Shown here: one piece after another, positions 20,543-40,005 of the stretch
Layout of the letters: every line of letters begins with the position of its first letter
How positions within the stretch are numbered: the first letter of the stretch is position 1
NCBI GenBank assembly: GCA_951406725.2
Contig: OX597839.1
Location: 17,980,001 to 18,044,000, forward strand
DNA from: Octopus vulgaris
Taxonomy: Eukaryota
DNA: 64,000 nucleotides
Reading direction: 5' to 3'
Notes under the pieces: generated by a model
The model's database searches: none
Seen by the model: the letters and a program-made list of their open reading frames with translations, nothing else
What the model was told of the DNA's origin: nothing
Translations under genes and position numbers: made by a program

Positions 20543-22300
20543 CATGCCTGACTTACACTCGTTCCAACAACACCTTCAATCCCTTCTTTGCCGTTTTCTT
20601 GCTTTTTGCCCCCCTCAATGCTTGCAACCCGCAAAAAAACTTTCTCAATTAGTTTTTAAAAAAACTCGCCACTCTAGTCATCTCTCCTTTCTTAGCCGTT
20701 GCCTCCACCATCACGTCATACCCCGTGGCTTCCTCTTGAAGTTCCACGCCACCCCCTATTCCTCCCCTCTCATCGAACCCACCCTCGCCCGCACCTCCCG
20801 CCTCCTCATCCGTGCCACCATCCGTTCCACCCGCTCTCTCCTTTACTCTCTTGACCACCAACTTCCCCAGGCTTACCTCCTCCTCTTCTCCCTCTGCCCT
20901 CCACTCTTCACCCAACCCATTCTCCGCTTCATTCTTAATCTCAACCACCAACTCCACAATTTCCTCACACACACAAAAAACAAAAAACTCTACCACCTCC
21001 TCAACCCTTCACCTCCCACATCCCCTACACCCTCCCCTCCAGCTCCCCCGACCCCCTCCAATCCCGCACCCACCATGCCCGGCACCCTCCACAGACCCAC
21101 ACACACCCCACCCTGACTTTCCTACCCCTACCCCATCTTCACCCAACCATTCAAACCCTCCTCCCCACACCTCTGCACCCCAACTTCCTGACCCCACTCA
21201 TCCCACCACCCTGCTCCCTCGCACTGTTGTTACTATACCCCCAATCTCCCCCTCTCCGCTGCCGAGCGCTCTCTCCTCAGTAGGGGACTCCGCCACTGCG
21301 ACGAATTTGAGACCCGCGCCGACGTCAACCAGTTCCTGCACCGCATCAAACTTGGCACCTTTTTCCACACGTCCACACAACGTCACAACAATCAGGATTG
21401 CTTTTCTGAGCTAGGGCGCCACCCATCCAACTGGACGCCACCTCCAGGCCAATTCAGTAGCCTAGATTTGTTCGTGCAATGCGTTGGTCAACCGATTCGA
21501 TTTCAAAAAAAGATCTCTCCGAGTCAACCTCACTCGTGCTGAATCGATTGCCCTTCGCAACCTTCATCGCCGCAATGACATTGTCATCAAACCGGCAGAC
21601 AAAGGCGGAGCAGTGGTGGTGTGGCGCGCGGACCTATACAGGGAGGAAGCGCTCAGCCAGCTTCAAAATCCCCTCTTCTATCGCCTCCTACCAACAGCGA
21701 GTGTCCTCCACCATCCACGACCTCATCTCCTCTTCTGCTCTCCCCCCCCCCACCGCCACCAACCTCATCGTCCGTACACCCCAGACCTCCACCATCTATT
21801 TCCTTCCCAAAATCGTTTCTGCCTGTAATTGTCCCACCGAACTCATTTCCCTATACCTTGACCGCATCCTGTCCCCTTTAGTTGCTGCCCTCCCATCCCA
21901 CATACATGACACTAACCACGCCCTTCGTCTCTTCAATTCCTTTTCCTTCCCTCCCAGCCCCTCACACCTCCTCTTCACCTTAGACATCAAATCCCTTTAC
22001 ACTGTGATTCCCCACAACGACGGTCTCTTAGACCTCCAATACTTCCTCGACCGTCGCCCTGACCCCACACCCAGCACCCCCACCCTTCTCCGCCTGGCAG
22101 AGCTCATCCTCACCCTCAACTAAGGGATGTTCGGCGAGGTTCCAACTCTGGCCAACCATTCCCCCGGTGACATCTCTGTGTTTGGTCTAGCCCCACACAA
22201 CGGACCCCACAATCCAGGCTTCACCTGGAACAACGATTTATATTTAATTTACGGACTCATATCCCGCACGGACTTAACACAGCCCCCTCCTCTTAGTGAC
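20543..22300 (+). pseudogene. Penelope-like RT/GIY-YIG ORF, disrupted
   Basis: Several frameshifts. The RT breaks off at LAELILTLN (22120) and jumps to the end of the endonuclease, so the catalytic RT motifs and the GIY-YIG core are missing. Confidence 0.85.
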
Positions 22301-23500: not shown

Positions 23501-23535
23501 GTTTCTGACGAAGAGCTCTGCTCGAAACGTTAAAC
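23501..23535 (+). ncRNA. Minimal type I hammerhead ribozyme in the right pLTR
   Basis: GTTT-CTGACGA-A-GAGC TCT GCTC-GAAA-CGT-T-AAAC. Intact core, 4-bp stem II, palindromic ACGT stem III and GTTT/AAAC stem I. Confidence 0.8.
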
Positions 23536-29654: not shown

Positions 29655-30342
29655 GACAGTTGGTTCCGACTGACATCTGGCAGCCAATATCTCTTGCGGG
29701 CGAGGACCTGGAGAATGTAGAGTCTTTCGTCTACTTGGGCTCAACGGTGATCCCAAATGGTCAGGGTGCAGCTGAGGTCGATCATCACATCAATGCTGCT
29801 CTCATCGGTGACCAAAGGGCGAATATATCAGGCCGTCATTCGTACAGTACTTCTCTATGGCTGTGAAACGTGACCTATGCAGGTGGTCGATCAACGAAGG
29901 CTGGAAGCCTTTGACAATGACTGCCTCCGGTGCTTTCTTCGCTGCCGTCGGGTGGATCGAGTTCCCACTGCCAATCTCCGACTTCGCCTGTCTCTGCGGC
30001 CCCTTCCATCTGTCCTTCTGCAACAGTGCTTGCGGTGGTTTGGCCATGCATGTAGGCGTCCGGTAGGTGAACTGAGCCGTGACGTCCTTTTCCCAACTGG
30101 CGGAAACGCGCAGGTGGGCAGCTGAAGACCTGGGTTACGATGATCAAGGAGGACCTCTCCATGCTCACGGGACCGCAGGTGGTCGGCCTGCGCCGATGGA
30201 ACTGTGACTGGCTCGCTATCTCCAGTGAACTGGCACAGGACCGTCGTGCATGGGCTGCCATAGTTCAAGATGTCTCGAGGGTGCTAGAAGAAGCCGACTC
30301 AACCCGCCCAGGGTGAATGTCACCACAAGTACAAGTAAGTAC
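29655..30342 (+). mobile_element. RTE (BovB-like) LINE 3' fragment, second RTE family, decayed
   Basis: EDLENVESFVYLGS, YGCET*P, RRLEAFDNDCLR, LRWFGHACRRP, LAQDRRAW, and a (CAAGTA)n tail. Confidence 0.85.
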
Positions 30343-30529
30343 AGTTGTGGGGAAGGGAGCAAAATCTTTATTTCTATGCAGTGGTATAGTCTACTGAACA
30401 AGAAACAGTACAAATAATACCCCAGTCAAATGTAAAAGAGTGCAATTTATACACAAGTAGATACAGTTTTTGTTATATTTCATGCCTTTTCTCTCCATTC
30501 CAGGATTAAATTTTTCGTATTAAAATAAT

Positions 30530-31379
30530 TTAACCCTTTAACATTTAAATTAACAATATCTGGCTGAAATATTGTTTTATGTTCCAACTGGCCAGGTCTG
30601 GCCTTTTACACCTATCTTACAATGTCATTCCAAAAATGTACAATCACATTATTGAAATCTTGAAGCTACAAGATAGTGAATGATTAATTCAAAACCATCT
30701 TTTATCAGTCGTTTCAGTTGTAAGACTGTGGCCATACCGGAGCACCACCTTCAAGAAATTTTTAGCCAAATGAATCAGGCCCAGTGTTTTCTTTTTCTCT
30801 TTTTAAACCTGATACTTATTCTATAGGTCTCTTTTGCCAAACCGCTAAGTTATGGAGATGTAAACACAACACCACCAGTTGTCAAACAATGAAGTAGGGG
30901 ACAAACAGATAGATACAAACACAAACATATTCTTTTACTTTTATATTTGTTTCAATCATGTAACTGTGGCCATGCTGGAGCATCGCCTTTAGTCAAACAA
31001 ATTAACCCCAGGTTTTATTCTTTGTAAGCCTGGTACTTATTCTATCATTCTATCAGTCTCATTTGCTGAACTGCTGAGTTACAGGGACGTTAATACATCA
31101 ACATTGGTTGTCAAGCGATGGTGGGGGAGGGGGGACAAACAAAAGACACACACATAAATATATATATATATGACGGGCTTCTTTCTGTTTCTGTCCACCA
31201 AATCCACTCACAAGGCTTTAGTTGGCCGGAGGCTATATATAGAAGACACTTGCCCAAGGTGCCATGCAGTGGGACCGAATCTAGAACCATGTGGTTGGGA
31301 AGCAAGCTTTTTACCACACAACCATACAGTGTGAATAAATATTAAATTGGACAGAGTATTTTGAATGCTAAAGGATTAA
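30530..31379. mobile_element. piggyBac-like MITE (inverse of the 9517 family) interrupted by two minus-strand family-A SINEs
   Basis: TTAACCCTTTA ... GAATGCTAAAGGATTAA. SINEs at about 30700-30925 and 30932-31325. Ends about 90 bp upstream of the terminal exon. Confidence 0.65.
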
Positions 31380-31465
31380 AAATGAAAATGTTTTTCTTGT
31401 TTTTAAGATGTCTTAATTGTAGATGCTTATTTGTTTAATTATTTATTTATTTTTGCTGTTTCCAG

Positions 31466-31576
31466 CAAGCAGGGAATTACATGAACCATCCACTTCCTCC
31501 GATACCAAGAGCAAATACCAGATATATAACCAACGACGAGATTGATGATGAGTTCAACTGGGACAAACTGCTATGA
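31466..31576 (+). CDS. FOXJ2/3: Terminal coding exon of a probable FoxJ2/3-like forkhead transcription factor
   Basis: Acceptor TTTTTGCTGTTTCCAG, then QAGNYMNHPLPPIPRANTRYITNDEIDDEFNWDKLL*. The acidic-aromatic tail resembles the C-termini of vertebrate FOXJ2/FOXJ3 as I recall them (..EEIPDDFDWDLIT / ..DDIQDDFDWDSIV). No forkhead domain was found in the window. Confidence 0.65.
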   Translation, partial: QAGNYMNHPLPPIPRANTRYITNDEIDDEFNWDKLL

Positions 31577-33019
31577 AATTTCAAATTTTTAACATTGCAA
31601 TATATTAAATGTACAACAAGACAGTAACAGTTATGTACTGGGGTTGGACAAAGGTTTCAATTTAACATTCCCACAATGCATCTTTGATGGGAACAGAAAA
31701 AGTTTGAAAAAAAAAATAATCCACAAAAACAATTTAAAAAACAAAAACAATACCAGTGTAATACTGGTCATTTGATTTTAATATTTCCCATAATGCATTC
31801 TTGATGGGACTAACAATTATTATAGAAGACAAAGATGTTTGAAAAAGACAAAAAATATTACAAATAAAATGAGGAGTTGAAAAGAAGCTATAAAAAGTTT
31901 TTAAAAATTAATAAAACTGAAACAAATAAAAGACAAAAAAAAACAATAAAAAGGTGCCATTTCTGCACTTCCTGTTTGAGACAGGCAAAAACAACAACAA
32001 AAAGAAAGAAAAATGCTAAACAAATACCAAAAAAGAAAAAAAACAATATTAATATATTCCATGTAGAATCTATTCTTCACACAATGTTTTAAACCTATGC
32101 ACCACACACACACACATATATATATACACGCACATGTATACTACAGACATGCTTATACAAACATATGTACATATATACACATTCACTCAAACACACCAGA
32201 TTATCTGTTCAATTCAGGTTAACAGCTGATAAGCTATTGAGTCTAAACCCTGTAAAACGATTCATTTGATGCATCATTCTCTTTTTATCTATCTTTCTAT
32301 CTATTTACCTATCTAACTTTCTATCTCTGTCTCCTATCTGTCTATTAATTTACAAATTTCTATGTCTTTTCAATGCTATCTCTCTCTCTCTCTCTCTCTA
32401 CCTATCTATCAGTCTATCCATTAATTTAGAAATTTCTAGGTCTTTCCAATGCTGTCTATCTCTCCTTCTCTTGATACATATATACATATTCACATATACA
32501 CGTGTATGTGTATATATATGTTTACATCATATGAATTTAAGAACTTTGAGAGATGTGAAATAATTCGTTTTTAAATAGAGGGGTAAAAAAAATACCTTTG
32601 AATAGTAAAAAATCAAAGGCTGCCCGTTCCACCATTAAAAACGAATTTTATATATACACATACATAGGGGTCCAACCCATGTCAGCATGGAAAAAAAGAA
32701 TGTTAAATGATGTATATATGTATAACTCTATTACTTAATTCTCTATATCTGTATATTTATCAGTTAATCTACCTATGTGTCTGTCTGTTTGTCTACATAT
32801 CTCTCTCTCTCTTTCCATACCTTGTTTGTTTCTGTCTTTGACTATCCTTAAATCCACTGCCAGACTCCTACTGGAAAATGGTTATACCTGCTGACAATGA
32901 TGCTGCTGCTGCTAATGATGATGATGGTAATGATGACGCTACCAGCCACCTGCTGGAATATTTGTTGCTAATTGTCTCCCGAGACAAGGTTTGAATGGGC
33001 AAGGTATTGGTTTGATAAA

Positions 33020-33250
33020 GGCGGCGAGCTGGCAGAATCGTTAGCACGTCGGGCGAAATGCTTAGCGGTATTTCAGCTGCCGTTACGTTGTGAGTTCAAA
33101 TTCCGCCGAGGTCGACTTTGCCTTTCATCCTTTCGGGGTCGATAAATTAAGTACCAGCTACGCACTGGGGTCGATGTAATCGACTTAATACCTATGTCTG
33201 TCCATGTTTGTCCCTTCTATGTTTAGCCCCTTGTGGGTAATAAAGAAATA
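33020..33250 (+). mobile_element. tRNA-derived SINE, family B, full length with 16-bp target-site duplication
   Basis: AGGTATTGGTTTGATA at 33002-33017 and 33250-33265. CpGs retained. Confidence 0.92.
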
Positions 33251-33328
33251 GGTATTGGTTTGATATCTCCCCTACCTCAGAAACATACCTAACTATATAT
33301 ATATATGCACACACACACATGCATGTAC

Positions 33329-33365
<37 letters not shown>

Positions 33366-33857
33366 TACACACGTGTGTACATATATGTATATATACACAC
33401 ACATGCATGTGTGTAGACATGTGGATCTACATCTATGTATTTGTGCAAAGAAAGGCAAATAAGTTCCTGAGTGAGAAAGAAAAACACAACCCCACATATA
33501 TATAATACACACTGCATACAAAAACATATATATACATACATAATGTGTCTGTATGTATAGTTATCTTTGTATGCACTGGTGAAAGAAAGGGGGAATAACA
33601 ATAAAAACTAAATGAGCAAGAAAGAGAGAGAGAGATGGCGTTGGTGGTATCAGTGAAGGAGAAAAATATGTTGGTGATAAAGCATAGAAGGTAAATAAAT
33701 AACAAGCATATATAAGTAAACAATAACAATTTGCCCCGCACCTTTCTACTTCAAACAGACTGATAGATGTCTGCATAAGATGAAGTGTTATTATTAAGAT
33801 ACAAATATTTTGGGCTATTTACTTCATCTTCAATAATAAAACAAATTTTCTTTTTTA

Positions 33858-34265
33858 ATATTTATATCTACACTATGTTTCAATCCATTTGATCTCCAAT
33901 CATCATCGGGTGTTTTTGTTTCCAGTATGTGTACATAGACCCAAGCTGGATTTGAACAAGGAACCTTTATCCTTTATGTTTAATTTTCTGAACTACTAAA
34001 CTAATCAATGGAGTGTATATTTACAATATTTAATTTACACTGTTTTGATCTATCTGATCTCCAGTCATCATCAGGTAGGTGGCTTATTCCTGAACATGTA
34101 CGTATAAGAATTCCTGTACTATTAAACTTTAATGTCTTTGAGTGGTAATATCTGCAATATTTTCTATCACACTATGCTGCAATCAGTTTTAATTGCTAAT
34201 CATCATGATCAGGTTTCTTATTCCTGGATGTGTACATAGAATAAAGCTGGATTTGAACTAGGAAA
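33858..34265 (-). repeat. Degenerate tandem repeat (3 units, ~130-170 bp) with Pol III A/B-like boxes and hammerhead-like cores
   Basis: Minus-strand GTTCAAATCC at 33948-33957 and 34249-34258. Core motifs CCGATGA..GAAAC-ATAGT-GTA and CTGATGA..AAAAC-AGT-GTA. Confidence 0.55.
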
Positions 34266-34351
34266 TCTGTCTTTCAAATTTTTTTTTTCATTCTGTTAAC
34301 CTAAGTTTTAGAATACCAGTTTTTAAAATTTTTTTACTTTTTTTAAATATT

Positions 34352-34720
34352 TTTTACTTGTTTCAGTCATTCAACTATGGCCATACTGGGGCACTGCTTT
34401 CGAGGGTTTAGTCAAACAAATCAACCCCAGTACTTATTTTTTCAAAGCCTGGTACTTATTCTGCCAGTCACATTTGTTGAACCACTAAGTCACAGGGATG
34501 CAAAGAAACCAACACCAAGCAGTGGTTAGACATGGACACATGCACACGCATAAACATGATGGGCTTCTTTCAGTTTCCATCTTCTAAATCCACTCAAGGC
34601 TTTAGTTGACACAGAGCTATATAGCAGAAGACAATTGCCCAAGATGCCATGCAGTGAGACTGAACCTGGAACCATGTGGTTGAGAAGTAAGCTTCTTAAC
34701 CACACAGCCACAGCTGCACC
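34352..34720 (-). mobile_element. tRNA-derived SINE, family A
   Basis: Reverse complement of the consensus. Confidence 0.85.
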
Positions 34721-35147
34721 TATATTTACAATATTTATATATATTGTAATCGATGTGAGAGGTATCTCTCAATGTGGACATAGTCCCAGATTGACTTCAC
34801 ACCAGAAATTTCTAATTTCCCAAACTGTTTGATTTTTAAACTGTACATTTCACTAACTAACAGGAATTTCTAAGAAAGAAAGCTCAACAGCAGAAGGTAT
34901 TCAGAGAAATCCGCACCACTCCCTTGTGCAAATGATTCAAACCCTTAATTGCTTACACTCTAAGGGGCCAAGATGCATCCAGGTCCTAATTCCTGGCTAC
35001 CCATCTCATGCCACATTCTGTGCTACTGTTTGCATTCACGGTACTCCTGCATGGTTAGGTACCCCAAACCCAAGATACCCTGGGTATTGCAAACACATCT
35101 GCTCTCCCTGGAGTTTCTTACTATGCTATTCGTTTACTCTCTAATCC

Positions 35148-35522
35148 TTTTTACGTGTTCCACTCATTTGACTGCGACCATGCTGGAGCACTGCCTTAAA
35201 GAGTTTTAGTCGAAGTAATCAACCACGGACTTATTCTTTGTAAGCCTAGAACTTATTCTATCTGTTATTTTTGCTGAACTGCCAAGTTACAGGGACACAA
35301 ACCCACCAGTATTAGTTATCAAGCAATGGTGAGGGGATAAACATAGACACACACACACATATACACAATGGGCTTCTTTCAGTTTCTGTCTGCCAAATCC
35401 ACTCACAAGGCTTTGGTTGGCCCGAGGTTATAATAGAAGACACTTGCCCAAGGTGCCATGCAGTGGGACTGAACCCGGAACCACATGATTGGGAAGCAAG
35501 CATCTTACCACACAGCCACACC
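35148..35522 (-). mobile_element. tRNA-derived SINE, family A
   Basis: Reverse complement of the consensus. Confidence 0.85.
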
Positions 35523-35719
35523 TAAACCTATATTTACATTTCTTATGTGTTTCCAGCACTTTGATCTCAGATTATCATCAGTTGTATTATTTCTGATAAC
35601 AGTTACTAGACTGGATTCAAATTTTTAAACTGTGTAATAACAACTGAAACATAGTAAGGGATGAAAATACTAATTTCTAATTGAGGTACAATGGTAGTAA
35701 GTTACCCTGGGTATTAATG

Positions 35720-37032
35720 TCTTGAACCCTAAGACTCATAAGGGATGGTTACCCAGTTTCTATGGTGTTCAAGTGACTGAGATCACAATATGTTGCCCAA
35801 ATGGGATTCCAGTGAAATGAAGAGACTTGCTCAAAAACACAACACACTGCCCAGTCCAGGAATTGAAACCACAATCTGGGAAGCATGAATGCAACACCCT
35901 AACCATCAGACTGTACACCTTCACAGTTGAGGTACAATGATACAAATGTTGCAGGAGATGAACATTAGGTATTGCCTCCAGTATCTACTTAACTGGTGCT
36001 TGTTTTTAATTGACCCTAAAAGAATAATCTGCAGAGGAATTGAACGCAGAGACAAAAGGGGTGTCATTATACAAGGTCAGTCCACATTACTCTATAAGGT
36101 GCATAAGACTGGTTTCCAGATCCTTGGATGAGATGCTGGCCCATCACACGACTACTCATTTTTACCATATGAGTGGACTGGAGCAATGTGAAATGAAGTG
36201 TTTTACTCAAGAACACAACGTGTCACCCAGTTCAGGAATTAAAACCACAACCTTACAATCATGAGTCCAACACCACAACTACTAAGCCATACGTCTCTAC
36301 AATACAGTATACCATAATTTATCACACAATTACTTCAGCTAACCTATAGCCTTCGTCTTATGTAAATTGTGAAATCTAATAGTCAGCAGAAAGTCATCAA
36401 TTTTATAAGTGGCAAAATTAGTTATCTAACACAATCTTGAGCAAACTGGGGCCCATCACTCTTCCTGAAAGGCATGCCTAACAACAAAACATTGCCTTTG
36501 ATTTTTTTAATAGTGCAGCTCACCTGATGATGAGCCATTCTCATGCAGCCGGCTTCTCACAAAAGGTGGCCCAGGTCTATTCTAATCCAATAATTCTAAT
36601 GCCATGCCACTTCCTATTATGTACTTAGCAATTCCAGTTCTTCCACTAGTAATTATTCTTTCTCTATGGTTAAATAAAGGAGGGAGGAGGAGCAGTATTC
36701 TGAGATGGGTGAGAGGGAGTTACCCTCAGACCAGAAGGTTTGCTACAGAGTAGTCTGCAGTAAAGGCAGCCAAGAAACTTGTGATGATGAGATTTAGCAG
36801 ACTATCAGATGTTGTTATACCTTGCTGGTCACAATGCACTTTGCATCATTTTAGCCTTCAAATAACACCATCCTGTTGGCTAGGCAAACACACCAACGTT
36901 TCCCCCATGATCAAAAGCGGGGGCTGGGGCAATGTAACATGAAGTGTTTTGCTCAAGAACAGAATACGCTGCCTAATCTGGGTATTGAACTCACAATCTA
37001 GCAACCACGAGTCCAACACCCAAACCATGAGG

Positions 37033-37091
<59 letters not shown>

Positions 37092-37350
37092 GCATCCATG
37101 TGACTGACCAGGCTATCAGATGTTATACATCATTGGTCACAATGCACTTTACGTTGTTTTAGCTATGGAATTACGCCACCCTGCTGGCTCGACAAACAGG
37201 TCAACTTTTCCCCATGATCGAAATGGGAGACTGGAGCAATGTGAAATGAAGTATTTTGCTCAAGAACACAATGTGCTGCCTGGTCTGAGAAATGAACCCA
37301 CAATCTAGCAATCGTGAGTGCAACACCCTAACCAATAGGCCATACGCCTT
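35720..37350 (-). mobile_element. Cluster of four decayed family-C SINE copies (~35720-35925, 36070-36300, 36900-37035, 37200-37350)
   Basis: Each carries GTGAAATGAAGTGTTTTGCTCAAGAACACAA..AACCACAATC..CAACACCCTAACC, matching the 50455 copy. Confidence 0.75.
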
Positions 37351-40005
37351 TACTAAAGAACTAGATGTTGAATTAGGAAACAGATTAAACTGACTCTCCC
37401 TTCACCCCTAGGGATGGAAGTCGAAGCTGATGGGAGTCAAACTCAAAATAGAAAAGGACATATAGACATATTAAATAACACAAAGGATTTAAGCTGTTGC
37501 TCTACCAATTTTTACAATTCATACACATGTCTATATGTGCATGTGTAGGTGTGTGTTGGTTGATACAAATATTTAAGAAACAAACATTAAAAAAAAAATC
37601 TTTCATATCTAGCGATGAGGCTGATAATTCAAAACTGAAAAAATTATCGTTATTAATGAAGATGATGCTAAAAAACACAAAATTCTGAACTGATAAACTC
37701 ACAACAAATGGAAAAAAAAAAAAAAAGAAGAAAAAGTTTGAAAATATTTCGAAAACAATTTCCTTCAACAAAAAAAAAAGGACCAATTTGCATGGAGGGT
37801 GGGGGGTTGAAGAATTTCTTTCTTTTAATCTATGAGAGATCATTCTTATAATTAATTTCATTATTATTATTATTATTTAACATTATAAAAATATAAACCA
37901 ATATTATGACTATGTTTTCTTTTGGGTTTTTTTTTGGTGTACTTTTTCTTTTGTTTTTCTTTTGTCCTTTAATTTATTAATTTTATATTTCAATAAAATA
38001 TGGACTTTTTTCCCCCTTCTGAAAAACAAATAGAGAAACCGTAATATTTGTGTGTTTCTGTGTATGAATATGTAAGAGAGAGAGAGAGAGTGCAAATGAG
38101 TATGTGTGTATATAAATGTGTGTGTAATATATACATATATTTGTAAATTTCTGTGTCTGCACATATATATGTATAACATAAGTATGTGTGTTTGCATATG
38201 TGTGTGTGTGTGTGTGTGTGTGATATATATATAATGTACATGTGTGTATATATACCTATGTATGTGTATGTATAATATATATATGTATGTGTGTGTGTAT
38301 ATAATATATATGTATGTGTGCGTATATATATATAATACATATATGTATGCATTTGTATGTTTAATGTAATATATATATATGTGTGTGTATATGTAATATA
38401 TATATGTATATAGAAGTGTGTGTATATGTATATATAATATGTATAAGTGGCAGTAGGCACTCTAGGTACATGACAAATTCATATATATATTTATATATAT
38501 ATACTCACACACACACACACATACATAAAATGATGTATGTAAATATTAGGAGTAAAAATCCCTCTGGATAGAAAAAAAAATAATCAAAGGTTGCCTATGG
38601 GAATTGGACTGACAACTTCTGTAGAAATAAGAGACATTCTATAATTCAAGTCCCACAGGTAACCTTCAACTTTTTCTATCCCAAATGTTTTTTGACCCAA
38701 CGTTATTATCTATGGCTTTACCGACATTGAGTTCAACTGTCAAAAATAAATAATATATATATACCCTGTTACTCATTTCAGCCATGTGGCTGTGGTCATG
38801 CTGGAGCACCTTTTACTTATTTCAGTCATTTGACTGGACCTGAAGGGTTTTAATCGAACAAATTGATCCTTGGACTTATATCTTAAGCCTAGTACTTATT
38901 CTATAAGTCTTTTTCGCCAAACCACTACGTTACTAGAACATAAACACACCAGCATCAATTGTCAAATGGTGATGAGTGACTGTGTGCAACAAAAGGTTAA
39001 CTGCCAATATTACCATCTCTCTCTCCATGATGAGTTTTTCCCCCATTTTCTGGTAATAAAAAAGATTGCTTTGTTTTACTTTATTTTGTTCATGTATGTA
39101 TATGTATGGTTTCTTTTTTTTTTAAACTTCAAGGTTCCTAATTAACTAACATATGAGAAGATCTGAAATGATGATTTTTTAGGGATTCAATTAAAAGAAT
39201 TTACCAAGTTGATGTTAATTTATGGCACAATTTTATGCAAAGGCCCAGTTTGTTTTCAATGCCATGATAACGCTAATCATAATACTGAAAAATTATGCTA
39301 ATTTTTATGCAAAAGTAAAAAAGATATGAAGAAAATTGTAGGACTCAATAGCAGAACAGTTAACATACATGTACACATATACACCTATATATACACACAT
39401 GTATATGTGTGCACATATTATATACATATATACACAAAAACTACGACTGTGTGTGTATGTATCTATGTATATATGTATGTGTGTGTATATAATTATATAC
39501 ATGAAAGAATGAGTTTTCAACAACATGCACGTGGCGAAAGATTTCTTTTAATGGGATTTCATAGGTTCTGCATGAATATATTTGCAGTTATTCTGTCTGA
39601 GTTTGACTAATGACTGACAACTCTGTGAATTTAACCTGCAACAGTGTGACATGAGATATTGCAAGCTTACAGATAAGACGAGATGTACAAGACCATAAAC
39701 TAGTGGCAAAGAATATTATTCTTAAACAACAATACCCTTGACAATGACTTCGAAGTTTTGGCCAGTTGGACTGCGATGAATTGAAGTTAATCTTATATTT
39801 ATATAGTCTATCTTGAATCAAAATTCTCCTTAGGTGTTTGTTTTTATGTCTACGTAATTACAATAAAAACAGATTAAAATTAAATTGAAGAATTACACAA
39901 TGCTTTTTTTTATAGTTTTAGAGTACATATTTATAGAGTACATTTACAAGAGGATTGGCAGTGAGCTCAAAGATTCAGGTTGCTAAACTTTGTCAGACCG
40001 TGGCT

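Follow-up and report, generated by a model that had tools for sequence, protein, structure and literature searches.

Diverged tandem units in the Octopus vulgaris genome as probable remnants of the tRNA-headed terminal repeat of an old Penelope-like element

What left three diverged repeats, with traces of tRNA-type boxes and of a hammerhead ribozyme, on the minus strand behind a gene of Octopus vulgaris? They lie in a 64,000-nt stretch of DNA (contig OX597839.1, positions 17,980,001 to 18,044,000), the whole of which we call the window, and were originally predicted to be the relic of a tandem retrozyme, a short self-cleaving repeat comparable to SM-alpha of schistosomes. We put at about 85% the probability that the three units instead descend from an old Penelope-like element (PLE), as decayed copies, in partial tandem, of its 3′ terminal repeat (pLTR). 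This repeat opens with a tRNA-Arg-like head that is likely a Pol III promoter, and its ancestor is predicted to have carried a minimal, dimer-type hammerhead. The locus itself matters little; its value lies in the design of the family to which it leads.

The array in the window

Alignment by blastn within the window bears out that the minus strand carries three units, diverged from one another and arranged head to tail (76% over 112 nt, E 3e-13; 82% over 55 nt, E 8e-8). Unit A (34105..34278, minus strand, as are all the units and relics described below) begins in the anticodon-arm region, ends near the short 3′ end, and lacks both A box and tail; nhmmer places model positions 10-131 at 34153-34278 (E 3e-19), and the extension to ~34104 depends on a permissive pairwise alignment. 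Unit B (33981..34104; model positions 50-175, E 7e-16) is 5′-truncated, without A box, B box, or tail. Unit C (33764..33971), the last of the partial tandem, retains the anticodon-arm region, a B box, the linker, a hammerhead relic, and the full 3′ tail; its nhmmer match (model positions 16-205, E 9e-39) is to a model of which this copy is itself a part, and its end at 33764 was placed by pairwise alignment. The tail (33764..33797), of the optional Penelope type, is found on unit C alone, is predicted to form the 3′ arm of a stem-loop, and scores 24 against a 99% null of 21. The units are unequal, differently truncated partial copies, and TRF run on 30000-38000 reported no array with their period; the regular monomer of 150-170 nt that had been expected is not what the locus contains.

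The feature is also longer than the interval 33858..34265 first assigned to it. Unit C reaches ~33764 with its tail, a further relic copy at 35529..35632 (44 bits, E 5e-13) runs from the B box region to just beyond the hammerhead, and a possible, very decayed copy at 34726..34817 gives a weak match (16 bits, E 2e-4). Each of these additional copies is cut by a common SINE; very high-copy SINE insertions are present at 34346-34700 (minus strand), 35143-35520 (minus strand), and 33020-33250, and two of them cause these interruptions.

Both 10-mers proposed as B boxes stand up, one in unit A (34249..34258) and one, CpG-decayed, in unit C (33948..33957); the middle unit, being 5′-truncated, has none. 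The 11-mer TAGTTTAGTAG at 33993-34003, taken to be an A box, has to be given up, since it is a single occurrence inside the 3′ end of unit B (33981-34104 corresponds to model positions 50-175), and the A box of the family lies ~60 nt upstream of the B box. The family A box is absent from every unit in the window, where head scores are 9-12 against a 99% null of 20.

Pairwise alignment confirms that each copy breaks the hammerhead core at another place. The relic in unit A (34169..34216) has a 4-nt insertion in the core and changes at A13 and A15.1; in unit B (34037..34078), G12 has become A and helix III carries a 2-nt deletion; in unit C (33870..33913), U4 has become C and the palindrome of helix III has been lost through CpG decay, and the ancestral cut site would fall between 33874 and 33873. 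Rfam models run on 32500-35500 with E values up to 10 gave microsatellite-driven matches, with no hammerhead and no tRNA among them. Since the copies of this family are ~17-26% diverged and have decayed without visible selection, the window locus is most likely a dead relic in which ribozyme activity is absent today, and monomer circles are not expected from three broken copies. Two other hammerhead descriptor matches in the window, at 23505 and 47328 (both plus strand), are unrelated to this family, and each stands beside a (TA)n tract.

As predicted, the array is antisense to, and downstream of, a plus-strand gene, ~2.2 kb beyond the stop codon. The last coding exon of that gene, which had been proposed to be FoxJ2/3, lies at ~31462-31576; at 31462, three contigs continue from it into different upstream sequence. 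No forkhead motif turned up when the window was scanned with a short regular expression. Contigs that we guess to be RNA cross the array without joints, at a depth similar to that of the last exon, and cannot show strand, ends, or cleavage.

An old dispersed family and its parent element

Searches of the genome (2.8 Gb in 227 contigs) recovered other copies and allowed a consensus to be built; the outcome that would have refuted the prediction, a unit without other copies or a consensus without the hammerhead core and its paired stems, did not arise. A unit from the window gave 40 matches, mostly at 72-88% identity, and another copy used as query gave 45; a 33-place hammerhead pattern gave 27 matches and a 31-place head pattern 62, with 0 for the controls of each, and the exact 33-place core pattern had 0 matches in the genome. 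An alignment of 95 copies defines a unit of ~250 nt that consists of a tRNA-Arg-like head, a linker, a hammerhead-like core, and an AT-rich tail or end. The copy number, roughly 2500 loci, is an extrapolation from the head pattern (matched by 2 of 95 loci, with ~52 distinct matches), as opposed to a model-based genome-wide count. Outside CpG sites, copies diverge from the consensus by 17% in strict local alignment and 26% in permissive alignment. This divergence fits a PLE expansion reported for octopus at a JC distance of 0.2, ~56 million years (PMC13282606), a consistency that does not date the family; a text search of that study found neither "hammerhead" nor "ribozyme".

The parent of these repeats was not evident from the copies first collected: tblastn over 79 loci plus the window, and over 25 more loci, showed no ORF beside a copy of the old family. 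We had first taken the family for a stand-alone SINE, on the ground that its copies shared no flanks, a view overturned by a diverged endonuclease remnant upstream of the unit at one of 23 head-selected loci (L232; 42-54% identical to the protein of a younger PLE described below) and by the contiguity of ORF end and unit. The ORF-end DNA of L232 recurs at 14 other places, and at 11 of them it is followed by an old-family unit on the same strand, mostly ~35 nt past the stop codon; at the other three the model found no match downstream. Remnants of RT or endonuclease (26-58% identity to the younger protein) are present at 10 of the 15 ORF-end loci, the ORF end aligns clearly with the C terminus of the younger PLE, and two loci (L027 and L043) share upstream sequence. 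Because the unit follows an RT/endonuclease ORF end at 11 of these 14 places, we identify it as the terminal repeat of a PLE. Within the family as a whole, a minority of loci show this contiguity with an ORF. All the ORF remnants of the old family are 5′-truncated and broken, and no full-length or intact element was found; within 9.9 kb around L232, no RT match was found further upstream. The old element is apparently extinct.

The window holds a piece of another such element, a frameshifted fragment at 21400-22300 (plus strand) that we take, from its DKG motif, to be a Penelope-like RT. Its tblastn match to the young PLE is weak (27%, E 0.007), and the part at 21461-22120 has no match in the old-family loci.

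A descriptor scan of the loci revealed a younger family in the same genome (L042:2260-2890, minus strand, and L155-L184, with 3841 candidates for the endonuclease piece). Its repeat stands directly after an endonuclease ORF, with the head motif in 26 of 30 loci and the hammerhead motif in 20 of 30, and its parts follow one another as ORF end, tRNA-like head, (AAT)n, minimal hammerhead, 3′ stem-loop, and tail. The protein matches RVT_1 at E 1e-6, just under the cut-off, and falls with Atlas clusters that carry RVT_1, HTH_animal, and GIY-YIG. Pfam does not recognise the endonuclease pieces, which we take to be endonuclease from their motifs together with the Atlas clusters; the element may belong to the Poseidon clade, a name that we apply on motif likeness. 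Young and old families agree in the order of their parts and in helices I and III, and their C termini align. They differ in that the young repeat has an (AAT)n tract, another linker, another anticodon arm, another helix II sequence, and the cut triplet GUU in place of the GUA of the old family. The likeness of the two repeats as DNA is modest: the heads score 38 against a shuffle maximum of 36, and hammerhead plus tail score 44 against a shuffle mean of 27.5 and maximum of 52. Copies of the young, active-looking relative are 90-95% alike, compared with ~72-86% in the old family. At one place (L127:2-910), a long C2H2 zinc-finger exon adjoins a young PLE tandem.

The head of the old repeat contains a 16-mer (with one degenerate position) common to the tRNA-Arg(TCG) genes of this genome, and its B box returns to the canonical form once CpG decay is repaired. 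At a relaxed threshold (-ps70), a setting that also returned a spurious tRNA on the minus strand, ARAGORN folds a cloverleaf over positions 2-82 with an anticodon loop 7 nt longer than usual. At the level of the family, then, the repeat has the SINE-type, tRNA-related 5′ head with A and B boxes that had been predicted, and the copies in the window lack the A box; we consider the tRNA-Arg-like head a likely Pol III promoter. The tRNA-Arg(TCG) genes form a cluster at C1:130863978-130899501, and the same 16-mer occurs as a ten-match tandem at C20:5232706-5237961. A different repeat (L109, L112-L116) carries the tRNA-Arg A-box 16-mer without a tRNA fold, in tandem with ~345 nt spacing.

Leaving aside loci recovered with the ORF-end query, we had 125 loci with 198 copies, of which 56 extend as far as the A-box part of the head. 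Upstream of these full heads, ORF-side sequence is absent in 51, clearly present in 3, and ambiguous in 2; the simulated power to detect it exceeds 0.99, and even truncation would stop ~13% of copies per 25 nt. Because heads were called by a score threshold, the 56 probably include some false ones, which inflate the pile-up at the start of the tRNA. That so many full heads (51 of 56) start where the tRNA does suggests that transcripts made by Pol III served as templates, in the manner of a built-in SINE.

The same count could be taken to favour a separate, non-autonomous SINE, in which short, tRNA-headed masters arose from the pLTR and spread by means of PLE protein acting in trans, the copies in the window descending from one of them. 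Size and layout are SINE-like, and because no ORF-side sequence was found next to the window copies, a short, non-autonomous template may have been the source of this locus. Yet a single model fits solo and ORF-linked copies alike, no diagnostic difference between them being seen, and the repeat of the young family, which is a pLTR, likewise shows 0 ORF-extended heads among the 15 matches to the head motif in loci selected by the hammerhead part. We consider a separate SINE improbable; it differs from a PLE terminal repeat in the template alone, and both may hold.

Insertion pattern and the predicted ancestral hammerhead

If the unit is a PLE terminal repeat, its copies should be arranged as those of PLEs are. 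The signature described for these elements is an inverted, truncated copy, partial tandems, and a 30-40 bp tail on one end only (10.1101/2021.04.23.441226), the tail spanning the distance from one RT start site to the other within a stem-loop (PMC11167929). In 124 old-family loci we counted 60 inverted pairs, every one divergent and 0 convergent, 58 solo copies, and 6 tandems, no tandem being longer than 3 units. Three sets obtained with different queries gave, as divergent, solo, and tandem, 35/38/3 of 76, 14/9/2 of 25, and 11/11/1 of 23, after 11 overlapping loci among 87, 7 duplicates among 30, and the query itself (L185) had been left out. The 3′ ends fall into two fixed classes ~25-34 nt apart, with no poly(A) found at them, and the tail is predicted to close a stem-loop in the old and young families alike. 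Thirty-seven divergent pairs retain both 3′ ends; the 34-nt tail is on one arm in 26 of these, on neither in 11, and on both in 0. That divergent pairs are never tailed on both arms is the Penelope insertion signature, and the array in the window, with a tail on its last unit alone, fits the same pattern. One divergent pair is present six times (C3:182332755-182333101, C21:1016836-1017180, and on C35, C36, and C44), near contig ends or on small contigs, and is probably a segmental duplication.

These arrangements bear directly on the tandem, non-LTR retrozyme or SM-alpha-like satellite with which we began, whose multimeric Pol III transcripts would cleave themselves to monomers and circles. 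Three local head-to-tail units, and the pairing of a type I hammerhead with tRNA-type boxes as in schistosome elements (PMC6765202), speak for it, and a derivation of retrozymes from pLTRs has been proposed (10.64898/2026.07.22.740005). Against it, no more than 6 of the 124 loci are tandem, with units unequal and differently truncated and the tail on the last alone; the 60 divergent pairs, the direct link to an RT/endonuclease ORF, and a hammerhead that is minimal as opposed to canonical are all at odds with it. The two features that define such elements, tandem equal monomers and a lack of coding capacity, are both missing from the old family, and we regard the satellite as largely refuted and very unlikely.

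There remains the ribozyme. Mixed columns of CG, TG, and CA mark decayed CpG sites in the alignment, five of them in the core region. When these five are restored, the consensus reads CUGAUGA, one extra C after A9, a 6-bp Watson-Crick helix II, and GAAA, together with a 4-bp helix I, a GUA site, and an ACGU palindrome as helix III. Work on viroids suggests that C as the extra nucleotide may impair cleavage. A type I hammerhead descriptor is passed by this CpG-restored consensus and failed by the majority consensus, and the core proposed originally proved to be out of register. The minimal type I hammerhead of a PLE pLTR is thus present in the restored consensus and in 0 of the 3 window copies. 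Of 20000 dinucleotide shuffles scanned on both strands (40000 strands), 0 pass the strict descriptor and 1 the loose one, figures that overstate the surprise and yield no clean p value, since the hammerhead was already the expected motif when the CpG sites were restored. The helix III site is the weakest of the five: G is found there in 31 of 110 copies, compared with 51 of 810 at other CA sites, and held-out loci gave TG 9, CA 14, CG 2, and TA 4, a result repeated in a second held-out set. In copies not picked by the query, conservation at core positions barely exceeds that elsewhere (304/400 vs 3811/5240), and an intact core is seen, by permissive alignment, in 14 of 122 copies, none of them with all helices.

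The younger family bears on the same structure. Its hammerheads are intact and in the same place, with the same helices I and III and a helix II that is different and yet paired, three double-sided, compensated changes separating it from that of the old family. On this model, the CpG-restored core of the old family is predicted to be a minimal type I hammerhead of the Penelope kind, and the type I ancestor from which the units were said to have decayed is supported at the level of the family; minimal PLE hammerheads are described as cleaving weakly, and as dimers only (PMC4209133). The covariance search suggested for such a motif was less telling: it finds no hammerhead at the locus, and RF00163 run on this genome gave 6 matches among 73 scored of 263217 candidates, all in other families and none in the old one. 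In five other loci (L032, L033, L036, L121, and L031), hammerheads have a long helix II insertion and a longer, palindromic helix III, the one in L032 lying within an inverted repeat. That the hammerhead likeness arose by chance in an AT-rich SINE, a reading to which the Rfam results and the failure of the majority consensus lend themselves, is hardly credible when CpG restoration supplies every helix and the young relative bears its counterpart intact.

A tRNA-headed terminal repeat among known systems

Taking the units to be decayed copies of a PLE terminal repeat, we can picture how they might have come about. Pol III would start at the tRNA head and produce a short RNA of ~250 nt, separate from any transcript of the 3-kb ORF; the RT-endonuclease of the element would nick AT-rich DNA, and reverse transcription would begin in the 3′ stem-loop at one or the other of two sites, giving SINE-like solo copies with the short end or the tail end, with repeated use of the template yielding a tandem such as that in the window. 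Hammerhead cleavage may be dispensable in this process by analogy with PAc, a PLE of Anolis for which cleavage was not needed in vitro (PMC11167929).

Knowledge of PLE transcription comes from very few elements, and the SINE-like partners of these elements are ill defined. Since two families that differ in age have a tRNA-headed pLTR in common, the design appears to be stable and not a one-off capture. We see it as an even call whether an octopus PLE lineage kept a tRNA-derived Pol III promoter in its pLTR over two waves separated by tens of millions of years, the built-in SINE being copied far oftener than the full element. The young relative makes two questions approachable: can Pol III drive a PLE, and do pLTRs give rise directly to hammerhead SINEs and retrozymes? 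Our results also suggest that some octopus repeats filed as SINEs are the ends of PLEs.

The closest known counterparts are the pLTRs of Penelope and Poseidon elements (PMC4209133), including PAc (PMC11167929). As described there, they have the same minimal type I hammerhead with a long helix II, an extra nucleotide after A9, a G10.1-C11.1 pair, a palindromic helix III, and a 4-bp helix I, and the repeat likewise follows an RT/endonuclease ORF, with an inverted, truncated partner, partial tandems, and an optional tail at a 3′ stem-loop. The old octopus repeat differs from these in that it opens, ~35 nt past the stop codon, with a complete tRNA-like unit, and in that most of its copies are the repeat alone, full heads mostly starting at the tRNA start. 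PAc is described as having a start codon at the head of helix II (PMC11167929), which the old family lacks, and the promoter reported for Penelope of D. virilis is internal and LINE-like (PMC2377424), unlike the tRNA head found here. A search of the open-access literature turned up no paper describing a tRNA-headed pLTR.

A small-RNA-derived Pol III promoter within the terminal repeat of a retrotransposon has a parallel in the TRIMp3 elements Helenus, Ajax, and Cassandra, which differ in being non-autonomous LTR elements with PBS, PPT, and TSDs; the name "Penelope" does not occur in the main text of the paper that describes them (PMC10886601). Typical tRNA-derived SINEs share the head and end in a poly(A) or simple-repeat 3′ end taken from a LINE partner, in place of which the old family has two fixed 3′ ends. 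In the schistosome elements SM-alpha and Sj-alpha, a Pol III-type promoter and a type I hammerhead are likewise joined in a short non-coding unit; these are described as tandem repeats freed by cleavage (PMC6765202), whereas most copies of the octopus unit stand alone or in inverted pairs, and the unit belongs to a coding element. Metazoan non-LTR retrozymes, also short, low in GC, provided with a type I hammerhead, and akin to PLE pLTRs, differ as non-coding tandem repeats with equal monomers and circular RNAs (PMC7229834; 10.64898/2026.07.22.740005), and neither "tRNA" nor "promoter" appears in the main text of the retrozyme preprint (10.64898/2026.07.22.740005). If octopus PLEs do carry a built-in SINE, PLE pLTRs would have a direct way of giving rise to SINEs of the SM-alpha type and to the retrozymes of animals.
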